Below are positions 1 to 12,510 of a stretch of DNA of 64,000 bases, piece after piece. The DNA is from Escherichia phage T5. The translations under genes and the position numbers were made by a program. Below the pieces are notes generated by a model. The model had not been told where the DNA came from and made no database searches. It was given only the letters and a program-made list of their open reading frames with translations. Numbering within the stretch: position 1 is the stretch's first letter; each line of letters begins with the position of its first letter. The stretch lies in the sequence record AY692264.1; one strand, 5' to 3'.

Positions 1-123
1 TGTCCACTGCCTCCGGCGAAAATACTTAGTCTGCTAACCGCCACCCCCGTTACTATTACCATGCTAACTGTTTCACCCTGCAACCATTTTAATTGCAGGG
101 TGAAACAATTTCAACTTTAATTA

Positions 124-858
124 TTACGCAACTTTTAATTTCTCAATATATTGTTGCGGGCTGCAACTATATTCTGCGCGTTCTTCTTCGGTCATACCTT
201 CCCAACATAATTGCAGGCGGTCGGCTAGGAACTGATAATCATTATCATCCTCAAGAGATTCATCAATAAAGGTTTCACCTATCAATGTCACGCCGATTGA
301 TAGAATATCATTAACGGCTTGTGCGTCCAGCGTTTTAAATCCGTATGACGCTGCCGCTGATAGCACGCCTTTATGATCATCAATCATTGTAAAATCAGCG
401 TTCGGATATAATTGTTTGAATAGCCCAAAATAGTAACTTTTATAAACTGCGTCTTTGCTGTGGTATATCTCGCTAACTTTATCAGCCTCAAAATATTTGT
501 GTAGTGTATCGCGGGAAAATACACGGATATTACTATCACCACGACCGCGCAACCCTTGTTTACGCAAATAATAATAGTCCGACTTGCTCATTAGTCGAGC
601 GGTGCAAATAATGTTTAAAGTATTTGCGTCATTCATGCACTGGCGCATATATGTAACAAGGGGCAATAGTGTATCTTGCATTATTAAATCATGTTTGCAG
701 GCTTCATTTTTATACTTATTTAAATCTAAATTGCCCTCGCTATCAAAGCAAGGCGCTACACGATGAAACGAATTAATGATAGTGCCGTCCAGATCCCAAA
801 TCATGACGCGGGAAATATGCGGGAAATTACGGGTAATATTCGTTTTAACTTGATTCAT
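124..858 (-). CDS. dmp: HAD-superfamily phosphatase, probable 5'-deoxyribonucleotidase (dmp-like)
   Basis: 244 aa ORF with HAD motif I (WDLDGT) near N-terminus; first gene of pre-early block upstream of A1/A2 as in T5. Confidence 0.6.
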   Translation of the reverse strand: MNQVKTNITRNFPHISRVMIWDLDGTIINSFHRVAPCFDSEGNLDLNKYKNEACKHDLIMQDTLLPLVTYMRQCMNDANTLNIICTARLMSKSDYYYLRKQGLRGRGDSNIRVFSRDTLHKYFEADKVSEIYHSKDAVYKSYYFGLFKQLYPNADFTMIDDHKGVLSAAASYGFKTLDAQAVNDILSIGVTLIGETFIDESLEDDNDYQFLADRLQLCWEGMTEEERAEYSCSPQQYIEKLKVA

Positions 859-938
859 TTTGTTACGTTCTCCATTTGAGGGATTAGATTAATTCAGCAT
901 TACCCGCTATTAAATAGCGGGTAATAATAAATTAACTA

Positions 939-1334
939 TTAAAGGCCATACGCTAGCGCATCAGCGATAAAACTAACATCCTCGCCCGATACGCTGGAAC
1001 GAATGCCAGCGCATGTATACACCTTTGCGCTCATTAGCTGATCATCAAGGCAAGCGGGGCAAGGTGCGACTACTGCGAAAGCTAAACCGGATTTTACCGC
1101 GTCAATAATGATTGTTTCCTGTTTCATAGTGTCAACATAAACACCTTTTGCTTTAATATGGCTTGTTAGTTTGCCCTGCATATATGCAAACGTTGTAACT
1201 TGCATCGCGTCATTGAAATCTAATAGCTCATCAATAACGTGACCGGCCTCGACGTGATAACGCTGACCATTAGAATAAACCAGAACAATAGAAGACTGAG
1301 CGCGATCGAATGGGATACGGTTAGATTTAGCCAT
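939..1334 (-). CDS. hypothetical pre-early protein
   Basis: 131 aa ORF co-oriented with pre-early block. Confidence 0.45.
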   Translation of the reverse strand: MAKSNRIPFDRAQSSIVLVYSNGQRYHVEAGHVIDELLDFNDAMQVTTFAYMQGKLTSHIKAKGVYVDTMKQETIIIDAVKSGLAFAVVAPCPACLDDQLMSAKVYTCAGIRSSVSGEDVSFIADALAYGL

Positions 1335-1370
1335 GTTTATAACTCCAATTAGTTTAATAAGGGATTTAAT

Positions 1371-1649
1371 TTATTTGCTAGCTTCAAGACTTACAACAAA
1401 AGCGAGATTTGTTTCTTTCCATACGTCAGGAATATCATTTTCCTGTAAATGGTCTTTCGCTTCATACTCATTTTCAAAAGAATAAAAATCGCCGGACTCA
1501 ATTATATAAATATGCCCGTTTAGTTCATTTTGATAAATATAACAATTATTATCTTTTAAATTGCGGTATACAGTACCATGCCGTAAAACATCAAGCGACC
1601 ATGTATCAGCGGTGTTTTTCATGCTGGGAAGATTAATTTTAATAGCCAT
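1371..1649 (-). CDS. hypothetical pre-early protein
   Basis: 92 aa ORF, tight spacing with neighbours. Confidence 0.4.
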   Translation of the reverse strand: MAIKINLPSMKNTADTWSLDVLRHGTVYRNLKDNNCYIYQNELNGHIYIIESGDFYSFENEYEAKDHLQENDIPDVWKETNLAFVVSLEASK

Positions 1650-1705
1650 TTAATTTAGCTCCTGTAATAGCGGCTATATCTCAAGCCGCTAGGGGAATAA
1701 TTTAA

Positions 1706-3376
1706 TTACGCAAAGAATTTACCATTCTTAAAGTCAATCAAAGTGCGTTGACCGTTTGCATAGGTAATAATATGCGTTTGAGTCCAGCTAGACGCGCCAA
1801 CGTTGTAACCCATGTCCAGACTACCAGTCACGCCAGCGGTATAAACGCCGCCGTAAATGCTGGCGGTGTGGGTGTGTCCGGTGTTTAATTTGCCCAATTT
1901 CTTAAACTGTTTCGGGTTGCCACGGCTCCCGTTAATGCCGTTGTGACCGTGTACGCCGCATTCAATGCCTGCAATCTTGAAAGATTGGTCAGTGGTCAGG
2001 AAAATGGCGTTAAATTCACAGCCTGCAACCTTGCGCAGCGCATAATCAAGCACGTTAAAAGTATCGTCTTTTTCTGCAATAGCTCCATAAATCGCAGCAT
2101 TCAGGCGGTGATATAGTTCCGCGTTTGCTGGGTCGTCTTTAATGTTAGCATTACGATCATCTAACCAGCGGGATAGCGCCAGATCATGATTAGATTCAAC
2201 AATGATTGTTTGAGAAAAATCACGCTCCATTGATTCCAGTACGCGCCCCGTATCGATAAGATCATCTAATACCTTATCACGTCCGGCGGCATATTGTTTC
2301 GCTAGGAATACGCCAGATGCGCGGTTGTGATGGTTGCGTGATGTAAAATCATGCACGTCGTGTACAAACTGATATTTTGGTTTAAGAATATCAACAAGCC
2401 CGTAGGTGTCACCATGCCCCCAAGACGCAGCGGCGCACTCCTCATCTAATTTTTCAGCGTGAATGTCGCCATATTGTAAACCTAAAACGTGCCCCGTTGT
2501 TTCATAACATCCGGCAGGAGTGGCGCAAGTATTCAAATCATAAAACACGCCGCTCTCGTCCATCGTTTCAAGCTGGCGCACAAAAAACTCACCGTCCTCG
2601 TCAAACTCAACAATAAGCGCACCGAAGTTATGCAGCGCCTCGGCCTTTTGTCCTGCTTTCTGCTGGATGTAATTTTTTAGCGTTGCCGTTCCGGTTGAAT
2701 ACATACGGCGCACAATTTCACCTTTTAAAGCTGGCACGCTTTCGGCGGTGATTTTAGCCGCTCCAATTGCTAGACCTTCAAGATTCAGCGCGGTTGCAGT
2801 TTCAGCGAATCCAGAAAGCGGATAATCTGCGGTGGGTAAAACGTTAATTTCAGCCATGAAAGCAAATCGGCGATTATTTAAAAACACGTTTTTATTGCAG
2901 ATATATTTGTCAAATGCGGAATCGTATCTGATACCGTCGGCGCCCTCGCCATTTTGAAAACCGTTTTTGTTATAGATAAACTTGCTAACCAGCAAATCAG
3001 CGCCGATAAATTGGGCGTATTGTTCAAGTGAGGCTAAAAAGTTTTTATGCGGGAACGTATTATTCTGAATCGATGTAATAATAAAGCGTTTACCTTGTTT
3101 TACTTCCCATTGCTCAACCGTGCTAGAAACAATCCCCGCCGCTTCTGGGCGCTCATCGTTTTTAATGGCTTTTGCTACTTTCGCCGCTTTCGGTTTCGCT
3201 GGTTTATTTGCTTCCAGCCAGTCACAAATTGCGGTAGAGTGTTTTGTTGTATCGTAAACCATTTTTGAAATATCGTCGCAAACTTCCAATTTAGTAGCGC
3301 GCAGACGTTTACCGTAGAAATTAAAGTCAGCGGCCATTTTCAGGATAACGGTTTGTTTTTCTGCGGAAATAACCAT
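1706..3376 (-). CDS. A1: A1 protein, calcineurin-like metallophosphatase-fold nuclease
   Basis: 556 aa, same length as T5 A1; metallophosphatase motifs GDIH, GNHD-like, GHTH; followed by 135 aa A2-like ORF. Confidence 0.7.
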   Translation of the reverse strand: MVISAEKQTVILKMAADFNFYGKRLRATKLEVCDDISKMVYDTTKHSTAICDWLEANKPAKPKAAKVAKAIKNDERPEAAGIVSSTVEQWEVKQGKRFIITSIQNNTFPHKNFLASLEQYAQFIGADLLVSKFIYNKNGFQNGEGADGIRYDSAFDKYICNKNVFLNNRRFAFMAEINVLPTADYPLSGFAETATALNLEGLAIGAAKITAESVPALKGEIVRRMYSTGTATLKNYIQQKAGQKAEALHNFGALIVEFDEDGEFFVRQLETMDESGVFYDLNTCATPAGCYETTGHVLGLQYGDIHAEKLDEECAAASWGHGDTYGLVDILKPKYQFVHDVHDFTSRNHHNRASGVFLAKQYAAGRDKVLDDLIDTGRVLESMERDFSQTIIVESNHDLALSRWLDDRNANIKDDPANAELYHRLNAAIYGAIAEKDDTFNVLDYALRKVAGCEFNAIFLTTDQSFKIAGIECGVHGHNGINGSRGNPKQFKKLGKLNTGHTHTASIYGGVYTAGVTGSLDMGYNVGASSWTQTHIITYANGQRTLIDFKNGKFFA

Positions 3377-3417
3377 AATAATAAAACTCCATTAAAGGGA
3401 TTAAAAAACGTTTGTTA

Positions 3418-3433
3418 TTGGCAATATTGCCAA
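3418..3433. promoter_or_regulatory. perfect 16-bp palindrome TTGGCAATATTGCCAA upstream of A1
   Basis: exact self-complementary 16-mer about 40 bp upstream of the A1 start codon; adjacent hairpin AACGCC-N9-GGCGTT at 3438-3459. Confidence 0.5.
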
Positions 3434-3472
3434 ATATAACGCCTTGAATAATAGGCGTTATAATTTGCAACA

Positions 3473-3670
3473 TTAATTTAAAGGCATAAGGCTAGAACTA
3501 ACACCACAAGCAACGGCGGCAATAAAACAAATCAGACCTAAACGCTTTGCTAACTTAGATTTACGTTTAAAATAATACGAATCTAAATCATTTTGAAAAT
3601 AAGCGAACAATAACGAGGCCGCCATAATAAACAAGCCTAGAATGAGGGATTCAGTAGGGTAAAAGATCAT
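3473..3670 (-). CDS. small membrane protein
   Basis: 65 aa ORF with two hydrophobic segments. Confidence 0.35.
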   Translation of the reverse strand: MIFYPTESLILGLFIMAASLLFAYFQNDLDSYYFKRKSKLAKRLGLICFIAAVACGVSSSLMPLN

Positions 3671-3726
3671 TTTAAAACTCCAGTCAAAGGGAAATTATAG
3701 TGGGGAATATTCCCCACTAATTAAAT

Positions 3727-4134
3727 TTATTCGCCTGCGGCTTGTTTTACTTCATCGGCAACGCCTAACAGTTGCGCCACGGCGTCCAGCGTTTCCAATT
3801 TTGCACTTTCCAGTGATGCCAGATCGTCAGCGTCTTTGATAATACCGGAATCGATGGCATGTTTTGCAATCACACGCACGTAGTGCGCTTTGCGGATAGA
3901 ACTGCCGCCGCCAACCTTGCGAGGTTTATCGCTTTTCTGATACGCTTTCGCGCTGGTCAATTTTGAGCGAACAGACACGGGAGAAGCCGCGCCAACTGCT
4001 TTTGCAATCTCTTTTAAACCGTCGCTATTTGCGAAATCTAAACCGTTTTCATTAATTAACTGCTGGTACATGGAAACAGCTTTCTGAGTGTTTTCTTCAT
4101 TCCAAGCGAATTTTGCGGTTTTAGCGTTAGTCAT
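3727..4134 (-). CDS. A2: A2 protein (DNA-transfer associated, pre-early)
   Basis: 135 aa ORF immediately upstream of A1 in transcription order, matching the T5 A2-A1 arrangement and size. Confidence 0.65.
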   Translation of the reverse strand: MTNAKTAKFAWNEENTQKAVSMYQQLINENGLDFANSDGLKEIAKAVGAASPVSVRSKLTSAKAYQKSDKPRKVGGGSSIRKAHYVRVIAKHAIDSGIIKDADDLASLESAKLETLDAVAQLLGVADEVKQAAGE

Positions 4135-4170
4135 GATGTAACTCCTGTTTATTTAATTTAAGGGATAAGA

Positions 4171-4218
4171 TTAACATAATGTTAATCGTTATATCCCCCG
4201 AACTACTAGGGGATATAA
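4171..4218. promoter_or_regulatory. palindrome TTAACATAATGTTAA plus 10-bp inverted repeat TTATATCCCC/GGGGATATAA
   Basis: seen directly between A2 start and upstream ORF stop; candidate operator or terminator hairpin. Confidence 0.4.
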
Positions 4219-4229
4219 AAGTAACACTA

Positions 4230-4481
4230 TTACGCTACGGCTTCCCATTTTTCGTTACGCTGGGCAACCTTTACAACGTCGCCGGATTTAACCCGAACGT
4301 TGTAAACAGTTTTTCCGTTGTTACTCCGTTCCGTTTCAGCGTATACCGCATCAATTACATCAAACGGCATAAGCGCCGCGCCTTTAATGCGTTCGGTTTT
4401 TCCGGTTACCTCATCCGTTTTAGTAACGAAAGGGATAAAAACGGATTGACCAATTTTTGGCGCAGTAGTAACGTTTTGCAT
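4230..4481 (-). CDS. hypothetical pre-early protein
   Basis: 83 aa ORF. Confidence 0.4.
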   Translation of the reverse strand: MQNVTTAPKIGQSVFIPFVTKTDEVTGKTERIKGAALMPFDVIDAVYAETERSNNGKTVYNVRVKSGDVVKVAQRNEKWEAVA

Positions 4482-4683
4482 AATATAAACTCCAGTTTAT
4501 TAAGGGGGATTGTTCCGCATTACCTGCTGTAAAAGTAGTGGCAGGTAATAAGCAACAATCCGCTCGCCAATATAATCAATTTAAAGAACTCCACTCAGGC
4601 CGCTATATCCCAGTTAGGGGGCGGGACACATTATGGTAAGTGCCGACCGTCATATTTTATCAAGTTATCGCTCTCATCGAACT

Positions 4684-4974
4684 GGGTACATCTTAAAGCC
4701 TATCGGCTAGGGTGTCAAACTATTTTTTGCAGTTTTTTATGATTTTCTTTCAAGTCAATCATAATGTTTCGCCAGATCATTTCCAGACCTTGCTGGCGGC
4801 CTTTCTTGTACTGCCTAAATCGATATTTTACCGATTGCTGGGCTATTGTCAACAATTTTTTAGTAGTACCATCTAATTTTTTAGCTGGTTTACCAGTGAT
4901 CAATAAAGTTTGTTTCATATCGTCGATTCCTTATAATATATAAGTTTACCGCCGATAGACTTTAAGATGTACCC
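4684..4974. repeat. 24-bp inverted repeats (23/24 match) flanking a 243-bp segment
   Basis: GGGTACATCTTAAAGCCTATCGGC at 4684-4707 and its near-exact reverse complement at 4951-4974. Confidence 0.6.
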
Positions 4975-5410
4975 AATTTTTAAAGAGCGTGGCGGTAAAC
5001 TTCCCGCCGTGTAGTTCGTCATTGCCGCCCTACGAGATAAATAATAGGGGATACCCAAAAATGGCGCAACCTTATTTTTGTAAAGAAACGTAAAGAAGGC
5101 AACACGTCCGGCGCTCACCTAAGTTTAAAGGAAACGGGCGCGCGAATACCATAAAACCTAGCAGGTTGGCAAGTAATTTTTTCCTTTATATTTGCCTTGC
5201 CCTAGTTGACAAATCTTAGAAAGCTCGTGGTGACGATAAACGGGTTATCCCCTTATGATGGGATGCCTGAAAAATTTACCGCGTCAGAAAGCGTTTTAGG
5301 CGGCTTATTTTCGATTTAACAAATATTTAACAAAAGCAAAATTGAAAAATAGTTGGAAAAGATATTGACTTTTAAAAATCAAGACTAAACGAGTTATTTT
5401 ATAAAATTAA

Positions 5411-5929
5411 TTAATTGACAATTCCAAATTCAGCTTTTTTAGTTTCTACCCATAATAATAACTCTTGTAAATCATAACCTGATTTACTAACACTTTTGTT
5501 ACTAGTAGGATCTTTAACTATAGCGCGCAAATAGTTTCTTCCGTTATTATCAACTCTAGAACCATTATAATAGATATGCTTAGGCAACTTATTAGCACGC
5601 TTATAATCTTTCTTGTTATTCATATTCTGCTTATGGTCTACTAAGCGAAGATTATTAATGTTATTATTAGCACGGTTACGATCATTATGATCGATTGTTA
5701 GATTGCTATCAATCTCACCATTAAATAATACCCATATTATTCTATGCACTGCGTATTGTTCGCCTGCTAACTTTACTCGATAGTAACCTGTGTTACTATA
5801 ATGCCCTGCAATATCACCCACCTTACTATTACCTTTCTGTACTTTCCATCTTAGAAATGATGGGGATGTTTCATCATAATAAAAGTTATCATTAGCAAGC
5901 GAATAATCTATATCTTTAAATAGACCCAT
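5411..5929 (-). CDS. HNH homing endonuclease
   Basis: 172 aa; HNH-type motif ...DHNDRNRANNNINNLRLVDHKQN... Confidence 0.65.
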   Translation of the reverse strand: MGLFKDIDYSLANDNFYYDETSPSFLRWKVQKGNSKVGDIAGHYSNTGYYRVKLAGEQYAVHRIIWVLFNGEIDSNLTIDHNDRNRANNNINNLRLVDHKQNMNNKKDYKRANKLPKHIYYNGSRVDNNGRNYLRAIVKDPTSNKSVSKSGYDLQELLLWVETKKAEFGIVN

Positions 5930-6186
5930 TGTTATAGTTTCCTTATGTTATTAATTTAATCTCTATTATATTATATCAAAACCATTAGCAAACTACCTAA
6001 TGAGTTTTTCAGGTTTAATTAGCAGACTCATAATCACTTTAAAATCCTATTAGCCAACTAACTATATTTTGTTATATAATAACTGCATAAATTAGTTAGT
6101 GAGAAACACTATCATTTAAGTTATCCACAGCCTTATACATTTTGTAAATTAACTTGACACAATAGGAAGGCTTTATAGCACTTTTA

Positions 6187-6228
6187 CACAGACTTATCCA
6201 CAGGTTATTCCACTGTATAAATATACAG
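6187..6228. repeat. DnaA-box-containing repeat, left copy (inverted relative to 9411-9460)
   Basis: TTATCCACA boxes at 6121-6129 and 6195-6203; 16-mer CTGTATAAATATACAG at 6213-6228 identical to 9411-9426. Confidence 0.6.
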
Positions 6229-6443
6229 GGTAAATGGAAAACATATTATAATGATGCCCAAAATAAGCGGCCTAAAACGCTTTCTAACGAGCAAAACGCT
6301 ATAGGGTAATATTAAAGTAAAGCCTCAACGCGTCGCCCTGGTGGCTTCGCCGTGTTTTGCTCTTTACTATACCGCTGCGCGGTTAGCATAAAACTAGGCG
6401 CTAGGCAAGGAAAATAAAAAGGTAAAATAATATTTGCCTATGC

Positions 6444-6473
6444 TAGAAAATTACCTTTATCATTCACTCACCG
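6444..6473 (+). promoter_or_regulatory. candidate sigma70 promoter for plus-strand module
   Basis: TTGCCT, 18-bp spacer, TATCAT upstream of ORF 6495. Confidence 0.3.
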
Positions 6474-6494
6474 ATTAACGAGGGAGGCCAACAA

Positions 6495-7505
6495 ATGCGG
6501 CTATATAAACCAGATAACGCAACCGTCTTAAAGGGCGCCTTGCGCAACCTGCTGGATGGTAGCAGGACAACCAGCATTAAACATTTTATTAACAAGGCTG
6601 AAACTATTCACCAAAACTTTTTTAATGATTATGATGCCTATGATATGGATAGTTTTCTACCCCTATATAAGCAGGGGGCAACGATTATCTTATATAATCG
6701 TGATTGCCATATCTTTACGGGCAGGGGAGCGGGGCCGGATACTGATTTTATTGTTGCGCAGGGTAATAATATCGTTGCGTATCATAGCAATTCAGGCCGT
6801 CAATCATTTAATATAAATAATTTTGAGCTTGTTGGGCTTGAATTAATAAACGGACTTTCTAGCCTTGAGGGATTTTTAGATGTTATCTGGAAGTATTTAT
6901 CTGCTGGATGGCATAGACCTGATAGTGATGGATCTCAATATACGGCTGTAATGGCTTTTGATGGCGACGGTAATTTTTTATTACCATCGGAATTATATCC
7001 GTATGTATATAATGAGCTAGTACAAGAAGCGGGTTTTATTTTCTGGAAAGATGAGAATCAGATCATTGACAACACGGAAAAACATGCTGTAAATTCTAAC
7101 ACTCAAAGCGTTAACACTCAAATCACTGAAAACAAAGGAAAAAATGCCATGACCAAGATCGCTAATATCGTTGCCGCTAATAAATCCGCCGTTGTAAATG
7201 CTGCAAAACTGGAAGCGGGCAAAATTGCATTAACTCAAATCACGAAAGTAGCGGCTAAAAAAGCACCATTTATGATTAAAGGTTATATTGATACGCCTAT
7301 TGGTCGGGTAGTTATTGCTAACCTGCTGAGCGTAGCGGTTGACCAGTACGCCCCTAGCAACCAAAAGGCGAAAGCGGTAGCGGGTGCAGCTATGGAAGCG
7401 GCTATGCTAGAAATGGTGCAAAGTTTTAACATCGCTGAAATGATTGATGAAATGGTGAAAGGTATTGATATTTCTACTTTTACCGTTAACACCGAAAGCG
7501 AGTAA
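6495..7505 (+). CDS. hypothetical protein
   Basis: 336 aa ORF with GGAGG RBS; C-terminal Ala/Lys-rich region. Confidence 0.55.
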   Translation: MRLYKPDNATVLKGALRNLLDGSRTTSIKHFINKAETIHQNFFNDYDAYDMDSFLPLYKQGATIILYNRDCHIFTGRGAGPDTDFIVAQGNNIVAYHSNSGRQSFNINNFELVGLELINGLSSLEGFLDVIWKYLSAGWHRPDSDGSQYTAVMAFDGDGNFLLPSELYPYVYNELVQEAGFIFWKDENQIIDNTEKHAVNSNTQSVNTQITENKGKNAMTKIANIVAANKSAVVNAAKLEAGKIALTQITKVAAKKAPFMIKGYIDTPIGRVVIANLLSVAVDQYAPSNQKAKAVAGAAMEAAMLEMVQSFNIAEMIDEMVKGIDISTFTVNTESE

Positions 7506-7533
7506 TAATTAACCTAATGTAAAGTTTTGTAAA

Positions 7534-7560
7534 GGTCGCCATAATCGGCGGCCTTTTTTG
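7534..7560 (+). terminator. rho-independent terminator
   Basis: GGTCGCC-N5-GGCGGCC hairpin followed by TTTTTT. Confidence 0.55.
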
Positions 7561-7590
7561 TTATAATGCCTTTACACCGTTTGAGGACGG

Positions 7591-7854
7591 TTGAAAATTT
7601 TCCCAAAATTTTGGAGGCTTAAAATGGTTGCTTATTCTTCTTCTGACGCTCTTTTCACTGGAAAAGGCTGGGTATCAAATCGCTGGATCATTCAAGAAAT
7701 GGTGCAGGAGTTCGGCATTGCTAAAACTTACACTACCATTCAGGCGCTTTATGATAATGATCAAATCGATCAGCAAACGGCGGGCTTTTTGCTGGATACC
7801 CTGAAAGCGGAACACTGTACTAAAAAACAAGCCGCCAAAATTGTTTTAATGTAA
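7591..7854 (+). CDS. hypothetical protein
   Basis: 87 aa ORF. Confidence 0.45.
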   Translation: MKIFPKFWRLKMVAYSSSDALFTGKGWVSNRWIIQEMVQEFGIAKTYTTIQALYDNDQIDQQTAGFLLDTLKAEHCTKKQAAKIVLM

Positions 7855-7903
7855 TTAATAACGGGGCGTTACTTTCGCCCCACTAACTAGGGGAGTATTA
7901 CAA

Positions 7904-8083
7904 ATGGTTATTTTTCGAGCTATTCTGGCAGGTATCTTGGGCGCTATTCTGACCCTTTTTGCTACCGCTTACGGTATTCAAGATTCTTATTGTGGTTTAG
8001 TAAATACTAAACCTATGGTTATTATTGGCGCGGGTATCGCTGTATTTTCTTATCTGCTGGGCTGCATGAATAAAGGAGAATAA
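7904..8083 (+). CDS. small membrane protein (59 aa, below ORF-track cutoff)
   Basis: read manually: GGGGAG RBS then ATG; two predicted TM helices (MVIFRAILAGILGAILTLFATAYG...). Confidence 0.4.
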   Translation: MVIFRAILAGILGAILTLFATAYGIQDSYCGLVNTKPMVIIGAGIAVFSYLLGCMNKGE

Positions 8084-8085
8084 AA

Positions 8086-8298
8086 ATGATCCGCAACGTT
8101 TCTCTTGCTCGTTCAAAGGGTTTTAAGCTGGTGGATGTTAACACATTCGAGCGGGAAGATTGTAAAATCGAATATGTAGCACGTAATAAAAACGCCTTTC
8201 GTGTTACAGAAAAGAAATTTGATAAGCGCGGCAACGTGATAGCTGAAACGGTTAAACATTTTGCCACCTTTTACGCGGCTTTTCGTGGAGTGTTATAA
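8086..8298 (+). CDS. hypothetical protein
   Basis: 70 aa ORF with AAAGGAG RBS. Confidence 0.45.
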   Translation: MIRNVSLARSKGFKLVDVNTFEREDCKIEYVARNKNAFRVTEKKFDKRGNVIAETVKHFATFYAAFRGVL

Positions 8299-8299
8299 A

Positions 8300-8644
8300 A
8301 TGGTAATTTATGAAGGCAATCGCTTTGTTGCTATTTGCCGACCGGGATTATTAGCAAACTACTTAAATCAGGTGTCACCTGAATATAAAGGCGTCATTAA
8401 TATTTATGAGGGCAAGGCGCATTATAAGATTAATGCGGTCGTTGCCCGTGAATTAGCATTTCAATTTTTGACTTTCGCATCTTGTGATATTCAGGTCATG
8501 GGTGAAGCGTTAATTGCAGAAAATGAAGATGATTTTATTAATATCTTCCGCAAGGTATACACCGAGCGCCTGATAATGAAAGGCGCATATATTCAGTCAA
8601 CTGCGGAAAGTATTGAAACAGCTTTCAGAAAGGTGGCGCAATGA
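8300..8644 (+). CDS. hypothetical protein (start adjusted to internal ATG)
   Basis: ORF 8261-8644 in track; ATG at 8300 directly follows upstream stop. Confidence 0.4.
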   Translation: MVIYEGNRFVAICRPGLLANYLNQVSPEYKGVINIYEGKAHYKINAVVARELAFQFLTFASCDIQVMGEALIAENEDDFINIFRKVYTERLIMKGAYIQSTAESIETAFRKVAQ

Positions 8645-8953
8645 AGCTATATATTTTCGTTGGTAATGTTGAGGCTGCGAATGATTCCGCTGGTGGCGAT
8701 AACGTTCGCCACTATTGGCAAAAATATATTTACTAGGGTTATTATGATTACACTGATTTGCGTTAAAGCCGAAGGCGACACGATAGCGCGAGAAGGGCAA
8801 AAATATAAAGCCCAAAAAGATCAATTACTCAAAACAATTGAGCGTTACAAAATACCCGATCTCAAGTATTCCGTAGTAGGACGCGATGGGATTCTAAGGG
8901 CGACACTTGAGAACGCTATCTTTGAGATAGTCAACTAATAACGGGGCGTTATT

Positions 8954-9157
8954 ATGAGCAATAAAATTATTGTGACCAAAACTACCACAATGGTAGACGT
9001 TTTTTATGTGCCCGATACGCCGGAGAATCGGGGAGCGGTCGAGCGGGGCGAGTATGATAGCGTTATTTATGATGCCGATGGTTATTATCAGCATTTGGTC
9101 GATTCCTACGGGGAAGAGGAGAAGATCACGCATCGATTACCCGAGGGGGATTTATGA
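8954..9157 (+). CDS. hypothetical protein
   Basis: 67 aa ORF. Confidence 0.4.
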   Translation: MSNKIIVTKTTTMVDVFYVPDTPENRGAVERGEYDSVIYDADGYYQHLVDSYGEEEKITHRLPEGDL

Positions 9158-9272
9158 AACGATGGTTTAATCACTGGTATAAACGGTTTTTAGTACGGCA
9201 TCGCAAGTCTAGACAGCAAGATGATTGGCGGGAAATGGCAAAGCGTAACAATTGCCCACTTCTCTGATAACC

Positions 9273-9297
9273 GACGGGGATCAGCTCCCCGTTTTTC
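9273..9297 (+). terminator. rho-independent terminator
   Basis: ACGGGGA-loop-TCCCCGT hairpin followed by TTTTTC. Confidence 0.6.
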
Positions 9298-9410
9298 ACG
9301 CCTCCAGTTAAATCCCCCTTTGTTTTAGTATCCCCATCAAAATTAAACGCGTTAGAATGCGATCTAGGACGTTTTAGGCATATATTAGAATTATTCACTG
9401 CGTAGGAATA

Positions 9411-9515
9411 CTGTATAAATATACAGTAGGATAACCTGGGGATAAGTCTGTTGATAACGCTTCAAAATGGCTAGGATTTTGTCAAGGCGAATCGTGCTGT
9501 TGATAAGTCTGTGGA
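9411..9515. repeat. DnaA-box-containing repeats, right copies
   Basis: CTGTATAAATATACAG at 9411-9426; GATAAGTCTGT(T/G)GATAAC at 9441-9458 and 9493-9510; TGTGGATAA DnaA box at 9507-9515. Confidence 0.6.
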
Positions 9516-9547
9516 TAACTTAAATAACAGTGTTTCTCACTTCCGTT

Positions 9548-9730
9548 TTTAAATACGAATCATTATCATTCGTATTCCGCTTTTTAAATGAGAATCATTC
9601 CGCTTTTTAAATGAGAATCATTTCACTTCCTGAATAGTTCTCATTCCCTTTCTTAAATGAGAATCATTATCATTTGCATTTCACTTTTTAAATGAGATTG
9701 ATTCTCATTATCATTCGCATTCAGGCGAGC
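9548..9730. repeat. direct repeats of about 19 bp (TTTTTAAATGAGAATCATT), about 5 copies
   Basis: seen directly; irregular 22-43 bp spacing; no regular spacer structure. Confidence 0.6.
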
Positions 9731-9749
9731 AGGGCAATTGCCCTGCGCT

Positions 9750-10500
9750 TTTGTGCAAATCCGACATTTGCCCCCATGGATTACGCGTGGGCGTGTATGT
9801 GCAAATCCGACAATTTTTGGTAGTGTGCGAATCCGACCCGAAAAATTTTTATAGTGTGCAAATCCGACAATGAATTTTCCCAAAAACTCCAGCAATCACG
9901 AACTGCGTTCGAATCCTGTGGAATTAGCTAGAGTATGTGCAAATCCGACATGTGTTGAGATGTGCGAATCCGACAAGATTTTTGTGACTTCGATGGGAGG
10001 GTGTGTGATTGTATGGGTTTGAGGGGAAGATGAGAGAGCGAGAGAAATTTGGGAGGCTAGAAGGATATGGGCGCAGGATTGGTGCGGAGCACCTGATTTG
10101 CGGGGATTTTGGGGAAGAGTTGAGATAATTTGGGAAGATTTGAGATAGGTGCAGAAAAAGTAAAATTTTATTAGCTAAAGGGGGCAAAATAGCTTGACAA
10201 GTGAAAATTTCTGTGGTTCTAAAAACTCAGGCAATCATGGGCCTTCGGCCCGAAATAATGCTGCTATTTTCAGGAGAGTAAGAGTTCCTAAAAACTTAGG
10301 CGTTTGTGCAAATCCGACCATAAATTTCTAGAAACACAATGTGCAAATCCGACAGTAATTTCTGGAAATGTGTTTTCAAAAAATGTCTTCTAGAAATAAC
10401 CGCCCTCCCTATAACCGCCCTGTATTAAACCGCCTATTGCTGGAGTTTCTAGGAACATGAAAACTGCCCTAGAGTATGTGCAAATCCGATGAATATTTTT
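9750..10500. repeat. array of about 9 copies of 14-bp motif TGTGC(A/G)AATCCGAC, all same orientation
   Basis: copies near 9754, 9795, 9822, 9853, 9938, 9961, 10303, 10331, 10478; extra copy inside ORF at about 12151. Confidence 0.65.
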
Positions 10501-10850
10501 GTGTGATCCCTAGAATTTATACTTATCAATTTCCTAGAAACTCAGGAGTCTAGAAGAAAGTGTTGTGCCATCCTAGCAGATGAGCGGCAACAGGTGTATC
10601 ATCTTGAATGTAAATTATATGGTCAAAAGTTTTACTTTTATTTTAAATATAAGATCCCCCAGGGTTCTCATATAGAGCTTTGCCCCCGCCAGAAGGTCTC
10701 GTGATGTTTCTAGTAATTTATATTAAATTACTTATTAACTTGTCCTATCGCTCCGTATCCTCCGCTACAAGTTAGTAATTTTAAATTACTGAACCACCAC
10801 ACCTTCTGTGTGGCAACTCTAAATGGTTAATTCTATTAACTCATAGAGTT

Positions 10851-10879
10851 ATGATAACATACATTTAGCTATCTGTCAA
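10851..10879 (-). promoter_or_regulatory. sigma70 promoter (TTGACA-17-TATCAT) firing into noncoding repeat region
   Basis: minus-strand read TTGACAGATAGCTAAATGTATGTTATCAT; no ORF over 20 aa downstream for several hundred bp. Confidence 0.5.
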
Positions 10880-10935
10880 CGAAAGTTTGTATTTGAGTCT
10901 CGGTACAGGTATTGTGCACCGAGATATGCAGAGTA

Positions 10936-11820
10936 TTATAATAATTCTTGGTATGCTTTTTGATACGCCTCAGTATCTGTAGGTGTATCTTTTGCTAACG
11001 CAATTAGTTCATCTGTTATCTGAACATTCGTACTATAACGTTGGTGGAACTCTTCTGGGATTTCTAGGTATCTATTTATGAACGCTGCAGCAAGCGGTGT
11101 AACTAACCCAATTTCTAGGGATAACTTAACTTGTTTCTCATAAATTAAATACTGAGAATCAGATGGGATTGGTGGGGTTACATCAACTTTTTCTGGTTCT
11201 TTTTCTGGAAGCAATGGATTGTTATACAATGCTTCATCTGGAAGCACAGATTTACGCTCTTTAAATATATAAGTTTCTAGATCCGATGCTTTAGATCCTG
11301 AGTAAACAGCGAAGATGCTAGCTTTACCTTGTGATGCCCTAACTGGTAAATAGTTAGTTGGGTAACTCCTTAATGCATCATGGAATGGACTTCCTGAGTA
11401 TTTGTATGTATCCCCATAGAGATCATCAATATTCATTCGTTCATCTTCAAAGATATGGAAAGAGCTAAATGATGGGATGGTGAAGTATTCCATCTGTAAC
11501 CCATAAACTAAGAAACGATGTGCATATGCGCTAATCTTTAAGACTGTGAATGCTTTCTCACCTTCTTTATAAGAATTGCCCTTTGAAGTAACTTGATAAC
11601 GCTTACAAAACATCTCTACTAAACGTTTCTCATTAATATTGAGTGAGGAATATAAACGTCCATTTAGCCCTAGAAGGGCATCAAACATAAATGCTAACTT
11701 ATCTTTTTCTTCTTGAGACAGTTCTGGAAATGGTAATACTTTGGCATTAGGAACATTATTGTTCTCTTTAGGTTTTGTTTTACCAGCATTTTGTCTTAGT
11801 TTATCTTTAAAGTTATACAT
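10936..11820 (-). CDS. hypothetical protein
   Basis: 294 aa ORF. Confidence 0.55.
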   Translation of the reverse strand: MYNFKDKLRQNAGKTKPKENNNVPNAKVLPFPELSQEEKDKLAFMFDALLGLNGRLYSSLNINEKRLVEMFCKRYQVTSKGNSYKEGEKAFTVLKISAYAHRFLVYGLQMEYFTIPSFSSFHIFEDERMNIDDLYGDTYKYSGSPFHDALRSYPTNYLPVRASQGKASIFAVYSGSKASDLETYIFKERKSVLPDEALYNNPLLPEKEPEKVDVTPPIPSDSQYLIYEKQVKLSLEIGLVTPLAAAFINRYLEIPEEFHQRYSTNVQITDELIALAKDTPTDTEAYQKAYQELL

Positions 11821-11901: not shown

Positions 11902-12510
11902 TTAATCCTTTTTATTCTCATTAATAACAGCTCCTAGTGCTTCAAGGATAGTATCATTTATACTCCCAGGCCTAAGATTATTAAAGTGAGTAACATAGAT
12001 GGGACTTTTAAAACCTTCAGTATCCACAGGTGCTACGCTTTTCATGTCAGATTCAAAAGCTTCTTGAGTATGTTTCAATTGTGCAGAAGGTCCATAATCT
12101 TCACCAACTCGATATGAGGAATTATTTTCTATAACGCCACCGCATGGAACATTGTGCAAATCCGACGTTATTTTAGGACTGTTCCACATTGTAATTGGCC
12201 CCGATTGCCACGGATCTCGAATAGTCACAGGAGTACTAGGACGGTTAACCTCAGTCTTCACAAGCTTATAACCAGCATCGATTAGTGTATTAATTAGATT
12301 ATCAGCGGGAATACGAGCCTTGCCAAAAATCTTACGAGCGTTGTTGAGCCTACCTTCAAAATCTTTACATGCTTTAATATTAGTGTGTGCAAAGGTTAGC
12401 TTCATAGATTTGAACTGTACGGTAGCAGTTAAATCTTTAAAAGCATAATCCCACGTATTCAGTTCATGATCTGGTACTACTTGAATAGATTGCTGTGCAT
12501 ATAAAGTCAT
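11902..12510 (-). CDS. hypothetical protein
   Basis: 202 aa ORF; contains one copy of the 14-bp motif. Confidence 0.5.
   Translation of the reverse strand: MTLYAQQSIQVVPDHELNTWDYAFKDLTATVQFKSMKLTFAHTNIKACKDFEGRLNNARKIFGKARIPADNLINTLIDAGYKLVKTEVNRPSTPVTIRDPWQSGPITMWNSPKITSDLHNVPCGGVIENNSSYRVGEDYGPSAQLKHTQEAFESDMKSVAPVDTEGFKSPIYVTHFNNLRPGSINDTILEALGAVINENKKD

Follow-up and report, generated by a model that had tools for sequence, protein, structure and literature searches.

Why the entry of phage T5 DNA stops after 8% of the genome is a question that has been open since the early 1960s, and the only cis candidate for the stop is a repeat-rich region of the phage DNA. The one published mechanistic proposal relies on DnaA boxes alone and declares the function of the repeats 'impossible to guess' (Davison 2020). 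The present study concerns one family of these repeats, an array found at positions 9546-9722 of a 64,000-nucleotide stretch of Escherichia phage T5 (record AY692264.1; 'the window' means this whole stretch), and the question that this array raises is what reads it. In its letters the array is indistinguishable from strong Escherichia coli Fur operators, and it may, as a tentative explanation, be a platform on which the host Fur protein would assemble at the boundary of first-step transfer.

A palindromic repeat array in the injection stop region

Positions 9300-10700 were compared by blastn with a phage collection and proved to be those of Escherichia phage T5 (AY543070, NC_005859), at 99.9% identity and with identical coordinates; 547 further records, nearly all of them T5-like phages, also matched. 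The same segment had zero matches in 72,556 plasmids, and a plasmid or iteron-origin identity was dropped on that ground: the DNA is T5 and not a plasmid prophage. According to the annotation of AY543070, positions 1-10219 constitute the left terminal repeat of T5, i.e. the first-step-transfer DNA, which enters the host first, and positions 9140-10149, non-coding, are the 'injection stop signal (iss)' region. In the list of open reading frames (ORFs), the last pre-early gene, T5.017, ends at 9157 and the next gene starts at 10936 on the opposite strand, which leaves about 1.8 kb of non-coding DNA. The array lies between the end of T5.017 and the end of the terminal repeat, in the sole long non-coding part of that repeat. 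The right terminal repeat, outside the window, carries an array identical to the left one.

A first-pass annotation, made from the sequence alone, had reported about five direct repeats of about 19 bp at 9548-9730. The number was right. When up to three mismatches were allowed, TTTTTAAATGAGAATCATT had five matches in the window, all on the + strand within 9546-9703 (starting at 9546, 9581, 9604, 9650 and 9685, with 2, 0, 0, 1 and 2 mismatches, respectively), against 0.12 expected by chance; none of 100 dinucleotide shuffles reached five copies. These five copies also came out of independent repeat finding, grouped as a 23-nt family spaced by 35, 23, 46 and 35, and Tandem Repeats Finder placed 4.1 copies at 9574-9668, with a period of 23 bp. 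As to the nature of the repeat, the repetition stood and the description as a tandem direct repeat turned out to be incomplete, since the family is palindromic as well as direct and its unit is read on both strands. A 13-nt core, AATGAGAATCATT (up to two mismatches), occurs 10 times inside 9552-9709, on both strands, and 16 times window-wide versus 4.5 expected. The unit, AATGNGAAT-S-ATTNNCATT, is palindromic with a hexamer period, and the array as a whole is made of 6-bp modules, AATGNN and the complement NNCATT.

A full unit measures about 25 bp (e.g. AATGCGAATCATTATCATTCGCATT); units 1, 4 and 5 are the longer ones (25-31 bp) and units 2 and 3 are half units. Unit 1 (9546-9576) consists of TTTTTA followed by AATACGAATCATTATCATTCGTATT, a 25-bp palindrome of the 9-7-9 type. 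Units 2 (9581-9599) and 3 (9604-9622), both on the + strand, are perfect copies of TTTTTAAATGAGAATCATT. They are followed at 9633-9645 by an inverted half unit, AATGAGAACTATT, revealed on the - strand by the core-motif scan. Unit 4 (9650-9680) is TTCTTA plus AATGAGAATCATTATCATTTGCATT, and unit 5 (9685-9721) is TTTTTA plus AATGAGATTGATTCTCATTATCATTCGCATT, a 9-1-9 palindrome with two more hexamers. The five units are nested in two 67-bp direct repeats that are 82% identical and both on the + strand. The first (9534-9600), DRE1 of Davison 2020, holds units 1 and 2; the second (9638-9704), DRE2, holds unit 4 and most of unit 5.

As a feature the array is already catalogued (DRC/DRE) and its novelty is nil. 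Record AY587007 (Wang 2005), where coordinates are 80 lower, lists a 'direct repeat C copy 1-4' and palindromes E-I at 9468-9637, i.e. 9548-9717 here; its direct repeat B corresponds to the DnaA-box repeats, C to the present array and D to a 14-bp array. The 2020 preprint of Davison names the region Repeat Region 3, places the DRC copies within two 66-bp DRE repeats beside a DnaA-box inverted repeat, and finds the repeat cluster in all 25 T5-like phages compared. It also gives a calculated shear point of the first-step DNA in DRE2 (9618 in AY587007, about 9698 in the window), which falls in unit 5. The description of the region dates from 1987 (Heusterspreute 1987, according to Davison 2020). 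More recently, a 2023 paper on phage BF23 stated that experimental studies on these sites are lacking, and a 2026 preprint described the region merely as repeat- and palindrome-rich. The adjacency that the first-pass annotation had pointed out is real, with DnaA-type boxes at 9437-9518 before the array and the first copy of the 14-bp repeat TGTGCAAATCCGAC at 9752 after it. Its view of three distinct families marking a specialised cis-acting locus also agrees with the iss annotation and with the direct repeats B, C and D of AY587007.

Fur-operator likeness and conservation of the motif

Compared with the Fur box GATAATGATAATCATTATC, the array agrees at 15-16 of the 19 consensus positions. The likeness was tested in both directions. 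The E. coli K-12 sample consisted of 220 kb around 12 classical Fur-regulated intergenic regions (fhuA, fepA-fes, fepD-entS, fepB-entC, fur, tonB, cirA, exbB, fecA, fecI, fiu and fhuE), which together make up 1.6% of that sequence. From phage to host, a count matrix was derived from 110 phage copies of the unit, AATG[A/C][G/T]AAT[C/G]ATT[C/A][T/G]CATT, and run on the 220 kb: 12 of its 15 top matches fell in the 12 Fur regions (binomial P 1.4e-19). From host to phage, expectation maximization on the 12 E. coli regions, seeded only with their own substrings, converged on AAATGATAATGATTATCAA. The E. coli Fur matrix (12 sites) gave leave-one-out scores of 8.3-22.5 bits, and the held-out gpmA and mntH sites scored 21.4 and 26.9 bits.

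On the T5 window, the best matches of the E. coli matrix were at 9655 (24.2 bits), 9657 (22.3), 9698 (21.0), 230 (20.2), 9551 (19.8) and 9663 (19.7); the array thus supplies the top three and five of the six best matches in 64 kb. Over its 200 bp, eight matches were at or above 14 bits and five at or above 19 bits, a result that none of 2000 dinucleotide shuffles came near. For comparison, 215.8 kb of unlabelled E. coli DNA contained eight matches of at least 14 bits and one of at least 17 bits, upstream of oppA. That site (L020:940-958) was the sole strong background match of both matrices in the roughly 216 kb of unlabelled DNA; oppA has a predicted 21.5-bit Fur cluster and was not Fur-repressed in microarrays (Chen et al. 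2007, PMC2189734).

The strong matches were concentrated in the longer units: 19.8, 14.0 and 14.3 bits in unit 1, 24.2, 22.3 and 19.7 bits for overlapping matches in unit 4, and 17.3, 12.8, 10.4, 21.0 and 13.8 bits in unit 5. Unit 2 gave 8-9 bits and unit 3 gave 9.7 bits. Same-strand matches were found 6 bp apart, not only in unit 5 (9692/9698/9704 and 9690/9696) but also at 9553/9559 and 9657/9663; a spacing of six bases (or three) between overlapping sites is what all footprinted Fur clusters display (Chen et al. 2007, PMC2189734). When unit 4 was searched by BLAST against 5,426 complete E. coli genomes, its most widespread match was a 29-nt segment at 86% identity, about 40 bp upstream of mntH. 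This gene, in work of Patzer and Hantke from 2001 that Chen et al. 2007 cite, is said to be dually repressed by Fur and MntR. The only exact one among the matches listed was that of positions 9656-9674, identical at 19 of 19 bases to the Fur site of the gpmA promoter, 26 bp upstream of gpmA; among predicted Fur sites in E. coli it shares the top rank, and gel shift has confirmed it (Chen et al. 2007, PMC2189734). In the arrays of other enterobacterial phages, the Fur-matrix peaks were typically of 21-25 bits.

Other host regulators were considered at the level of consensus sequences. Those of Zur, ArgR, MetR, NsrR, IHF and CRP fit the unit less well than that of Fur. In the literature searched, the repeats do not appear to have been described as top-grade Fur operator sequences, nor the palindrome next to the DnaA boxes as a LexA box. 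Davison 2020 mentions neither Fur nor LexA, and no link between Fur and T5 was found in the literature searched; Davison 2015 and Heusterspreute 1987, outside that literature, might mention Fur.

Matches to the Fur matrix are not restricted to the array. Outside it, the terminal repeat has 0.84 sites of at least 14 bits per kb, about 45 times the density of the other 54 kb (0.019 per kb), whose G+C is equal. Eight of them lie in 1-9530 (at 230, 232, 1539, 2954, 3448, 5357, 5876 and 9078) and one in 10220-64000; none of 300 shuffles reached eight. The site at 230-248, about 230 bp from the left genome end and within the dmp gene, forms a perfect 7-1-7 palindrome of the Fur type, TGATAATCATTATCA. 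The peptide encoded there, ...DDNDY..., uses GAT/AAT Asp/Asn codons, and the site may be a coding by-product; it was not used as support. Proteus phage Stubb has a 16.5-bit site at 255, a similar distance from its left end. Tequinta- and Epseptimaviruses besides T5 (loci L003-L010) have an extra, strong Fur-like palindrome, GATATTGATAATCATTCTC, up to 17/19 to the consensus, about 350-800 bp upstream of their DnaA boxes (e.g. L008:270-288 and L009:33-51), where T5 has none; in the Epseptimaviruses it stands directly upstream of the last small pre-early ORF.

To see how far the array extends among T5-like phages, the homologous stretch was compared from 13 further phages (Tequintavirus, Epseptimavirus, Sugarlandvirus, Myunavirus, Pantoea phage AAS21 and Enterobacter phage KKP_3711). 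In all 14 loci a LexA-type palindrome comes first, then paired DnaA-type boxes, followed by a conserved ACAGTGTTTCTCAC element and two to seven units; a G+C-rich palindrome, the CTGCGC motif and the 14-bp array complete the order. IMG/VR viral contigs provided 27 distinct arrays (26 new ones and the T5 right-repeat copy), each with 6-13 core motifs and the same order of elements, except that the LexA-box check failed in three. Absence from related phages, which the first-pass annotation had named as the finding that would tell against it, was not what we saw: the family is present in 39 of 39 distinct enterobacterial T5-like arrays, in all of which the DnaA boxes precede the array and the 14-bp repeats follow it; in the longer order that includes the LexA-like box and the nick, one or two LexA/DnaA exceptions were seen. 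The motif is retained across phages in arrays as short as 127 bp and as long as 441 bp, and unit spacings cluster at 23, 29 and 35 bp, i.e. arrays grow and shrink in 6-bp steps. Across genera, AATG..AAT and ATT..CATT are near-invariant and the neighbouring positions vary, which holds true in columns that were not used for copy selection.

An A1-based scan of viral contigs gave mostly close relatives and, further out, added only one Vibrio lineage and the Proteus phages. In PM135 and Stubb, Proteus phages with an A1 that is 43% identical, the layout is kept with two to four degenerate units. Vibrio phage D232 has DnaA boxes, LexA boxes and one unit, AAATGCGAATGCTTCTCATT. Vibrio phage Javier (Thalassavirus) has kept the LexA box, the DnaA boxes and six repeats of the 14-bp type.

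A palindromic array of this kind could be conserved for its pairing or for its letters. The single-strand fold of 9530-9760 reaches -38.5 kcal/mol, with z-scores of -7.4 (+ strand) and -5.4 (- strand) relative to shuffles. The mirrored variable dinucleotides were symmetric no more often than expected by chance: in 2 cases versus 4.6 for the 9-1-9 units (16 unique units), in 8 versus 7.4 for the 9-7-9 units (26 unique) and in 5 versus 4.9 for the 9-13-9 units (12 unique). In the absence of co-variation between mirrored halves, selection therefore bears on the letters AATG..AAT and ATT..CATT and not on pairing, a pattern that points to a dimeric protein as reader of the motif. Rfam gave sub-threshold, chance-level matches only (CRISPR-DR34, 21.6 versus 35 bits, and mir-1252, 23 versus 70 bits); a CRISPR array or a known RNA family was rejected, no Rfam model reaching its gathering score.

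Candidate readers of the array

The explanation we tentatively place first, at what we consider less than even chances, is that the array is a host Fur-binding array at the first-step-transfer boundary. Fe2+-Fur would load onto the three strong sub-clusters and then spread over the intervening half units, until about 175 bp are covered. The Fur array adjoins a LexA-type box and four DnaA-type boxes, and Fur, LexA and DnaA together would form a bulky nucleoprotein assembly where first-step DNA meets second-step DNA; this assembly would help to bring about the pause in entry, or else mark or anchor the boundary. From the sequence we infer that Fur would bind here, that its binding would be the function under selection and that it would act on the pause. 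The preference for a host protein comes from the biology of transfer. A1 and A2 mutants stay arrested after the first step, and first-step transfer has classically been reported to be independent of phage protein synthesis; the reader of a stop signal must therefore be in place beforehand, in the cell or in the virion, and a host protein is favoured for any stopping role. One may go further and propose that enterobacterial T5-like phages carry the LexA box, the paired DnaA boxes and the 175-bp Fur array deliberately, as sites of high affinity for three regulators that are abundant in the host, with host proteins, Fur among them, as the trans-acting part of the stop signal. We regard this as unlikely; if true, two-step transfer would depend on the iron, DNA-damage or replication status of the host and would be altered in fur, lexA and dnaA hosts.

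Several observations weigh against a role for Fur. Promoter overlap is seen for 83% of the Fur clusters of E. coli (Chen et al. 2007, PMC2189734), whereas the array overlaps a single weak promoter-like match (9/12, 9687-9714), no more than shuffles give, and has no gene downstream before 10936, on the opposite strand; a promoter function was rejected on account of that shuffle-level match. The two perfect 23-bp T5 copies are half sites only (8-10 bits). Some arrays are weak, with 15.8 bits in Enterobacter phage KKP_3711 and 16-18.5 bits in the Proteus phages. In Javier, the array position is occupied by an unrelated 16-bp tandem repeat, TCTAGACTTCTATCCA, in about five copies, and the best Fur score there is -1.2 bits; if Vibrio Fur reads the E. 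coli box, which we assume, a requirement for Fur is at least not universal. The phage units also favour GAGAAT or GCGAAT over the canonical GATAAT hexamer, and this could reflect a different reader with a related specificity. It is, besides, not obvious in physical terms how proteins sitting on DNA already inside the cell could halt the part still to come. Lastly, Fur is inactive in iron-starved cells, the very state in which FhuA, the T5 receptor, is most highly expressed.

The main rival is a protein encoded by the phage, chiefly the pre-early A2 dimer, acting alone or with the membrane-bound A1. Its docking at the boundary would release the pause and start second-step transfer, and the resemblance to the Fur box would be coincidental, two dimeric proteins happening to read AT-rich hexamers. 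A2, a DNA-binding dimer, is essential and associates with A1; second-step transfer needs both proteins, and all T5-like phages keep both. The palindromic unit suits a dimer, and a model of A2 contains a predicted helix-turn-helix domain of the GcrA/Myb type. The preference for GAGAAT/GCGAAT over the canonical Fur hexamer would find an explanation too. Motif strength roughly tracks the identity of A2 to that of T5, the motif being strong in Epseptimavirus (about 87%) and in Klebsiella phages (about 66%) and the array being lost in a Vibrio genus (about 41%). The correlation has its exception in Vibrio phage D232, whose A2 is just 39-42% identical and which still has a same-sequence unit, AAATGCGAATGCTTCTCATT. 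Moreover, the specific site of A2 was never defined, and its putative recognition helix (S..VRSKL) is equally conserved in Javier, which is without the array but has 14-bp TGTGCAAATCCGAC-type repeats (12/14 bases); the 14-bp family is therefore a better candidate for the A2 site. A protein made by the phage would be able to cause the restart only, and not the stop. Finally, an A2 site leaves unexplained the specific retrieval of host Fur operators by the phage motif. On balance we consider a phage-encoded reader of the array to be possible and rather doubtful.

An improbable alternative, in our opinion, is that no one sequence-specific reader of the array is of consequence and that the array is an AT-rich, easily melted or bent spacer by the DnaA boxes, comparable to an unwinding element. 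The surroundings do evoke an origin: four DnaA-type boxes (9437-9518), 175 bp at 22-36% G+C and nine 14-bp direct repeats come in an order that mimics the layout of the iteron origins of P1, pSC101 and RK2. That Javier fills the position with a different tandem repeat looks as if any repeat sufficed. Mere AT richness, however, does not account for the conservation of specific bases across genera. No initiator gene is adjacent, 9158-10935 being without any annotated ORF, and T5 origins have been mapped near the genome middle, the replication genes being silent during the pause (Davison 2020).

The array could also be accessory to a terminase or nicking signal, as a bending or recruitment site for formation of the genome end (10219) and of the 7.9% nick (9748/9749), an idea to which we give little credence. 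The array lies close to both points: 27 bp separate its end from the major nick and about 500 bp from the terminal repeat end, which the 14-bp repeats straddle (9752-9974 and 10305-10490), and array, palindrome, CTGCGC and first 14-bp copy are contiguous in all the enterobacterial and Proteus phages examined. Nothing, however, ties the array itself to packaging, the recognition site of the T5 terminase being undefined, and its specific Fur-operator sequence would be left unexplained. In addition, T5 mutants devoid of nicks are viable and their DNA transfer keeps its two steps, which counts against a nicking role.

Very improbable, in spite of the many nested palindromes, of a single-strand fold far better than that of shuffles and of structure figuring among the proposals that came with the first description of the region, is a physical block of the tail or membrane channel by hairpins or cruciforms: compensatory co-variation is lacking in the 54 unique units, where motif letters and not pairing are conserved, the arms are short (9-12 bp) and imperfect, palindromic protein sites would give equal fold z-scores, and double-stranded DNA nicked 27 bp away would be unable to hold the supercoiling needed for cruciform extrusion.

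With Fur as the preferred if tentative reader, a region whose role was 'impossible to guess' narrows to named, purifiable host proteins, and the Fur likeness of the repeats offers a simple route to testing how T5 pauses DNA entry. Even if Fur were irrelevant, the definition of the motif, the map of its copies and its phylogenetic distribution would provide a precise target for mutagenesis of the stop signal and an aid to finding the sites of A2.

Neighbouring elements and comparison with known systems

The array is flanked on its left by the LexA/SOS-box-like palindrome TACTGTATAAATATACAGTA (9409-9428, 'palindrome D' of AY587007), with one mismatch to TACTG(TA)5CAGTA. This box, to the left of the DnaA boxes, is exact in 11 of the 14 phages and has one change in the remaining three; it is kept in nearly all the T5-like phages examined, Vibrio phages included. 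A second, weaker LexA-like box is found at 6211-6230, beside an inverted DnaA-box repeat at about 6.1-6.2 kb. These two are the only LexA-like boxes in 64 kb and both are in the terminal repeat. The DnaA-type boxes next to the array form two pairs on the - strand: TTATCCCCA and TTATCAACA, 3 bp apart, at 9437-9457 (sequence scan and Davison 2020), and TTATCAACA with the consensus box TTATCCACA at 9498-9518 (sequence scan). The three perfect DnaA boxes of the window all lie within the terminal repeat.

To the right of the array, palindrome J of AY587007, GCAGGGCAATTGCCCTGC, occupies 9729-9746 and is followed by GCGC and by the major single-strand interruption, the 7.9% nick annotated on the - strand at 9748-9749. 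Copies 1-6 of the 14-bp TGTGCAAATCCGAC array ('direct repeat D') come next on the + strand (9752-9974), and copies 7-9, on the same strand, are just past the terminal repeat end (10305-10490). Nine copies of the family thus straddle that end, and a tenth is located in gene T5.019 (12153-12166). Even in Javier, with an A1 31% and an A2 about 41% identical, 12 of the 14 bases are kept, which is unusually strong for a short site; the reader of this family may be A2, the terminase or a host factor. From T5 to the Proteus phages, the G+C-rich palindrome, the CTGCGC motif of the 7.9% nick site and the first 14-bp repeat are contiguous (9729-9765 in T5), and this suggests that the nick site belongs with its neighbours to one conserved module. 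Protein A1 itself (1706-3376, - strand) displays invariant GD.H.E, SNH, GH.G and GHTH motifs when T5 is aligned with two Vibrio phage A1 sequences; they look like the active site of a metallophosphatase (Mre11/calcineurin-like), and a local Pfam search gave no match.

Among known systems, lambda cosB with its IHF site likewise associates short repeats and a site for a host protein near the point where genome ends are formed. In T5, by contrast, about 500 bp separate the array from the end, which is flanked by repeats of the 14-bp family and not by the array. Origins of the iteron or oriC type share with the T5 locus the order of a DnaA-box cluster, AT-rich repeats and short direct repeats; T5, by contrast, has no adjacent initiator gene and its AT-rich part is conserved letter by letter. 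With respect to the published DRC/DRE of T5, the DNA is the same. The published copy count is four and no function is given, whereas five + strand copies and an inverted half copy are counted here, the unit is resolved as a hexamer-periodic palindrome and the comparison now takes in 39 distinct arrays as well as phages of Proteus and Vibrio. Another parallel is with the Fur clusters of E. coli (gpmA, mntH, fhuF, fecI and entC), which the T5 array resembles in sequence and in its overlapping sites on alternating strands. Unlike those clusters, it has neither a promoter nor a gene to regulate, and it stands beside DnaA- and LexA-type boxes in a virulent phage. With about 175 bp and three strong sub-clusters, it is also larger than the largest Fur cluster reported in E. 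coli, of 142 bases (Chen et al. 2007, PMC2189734).

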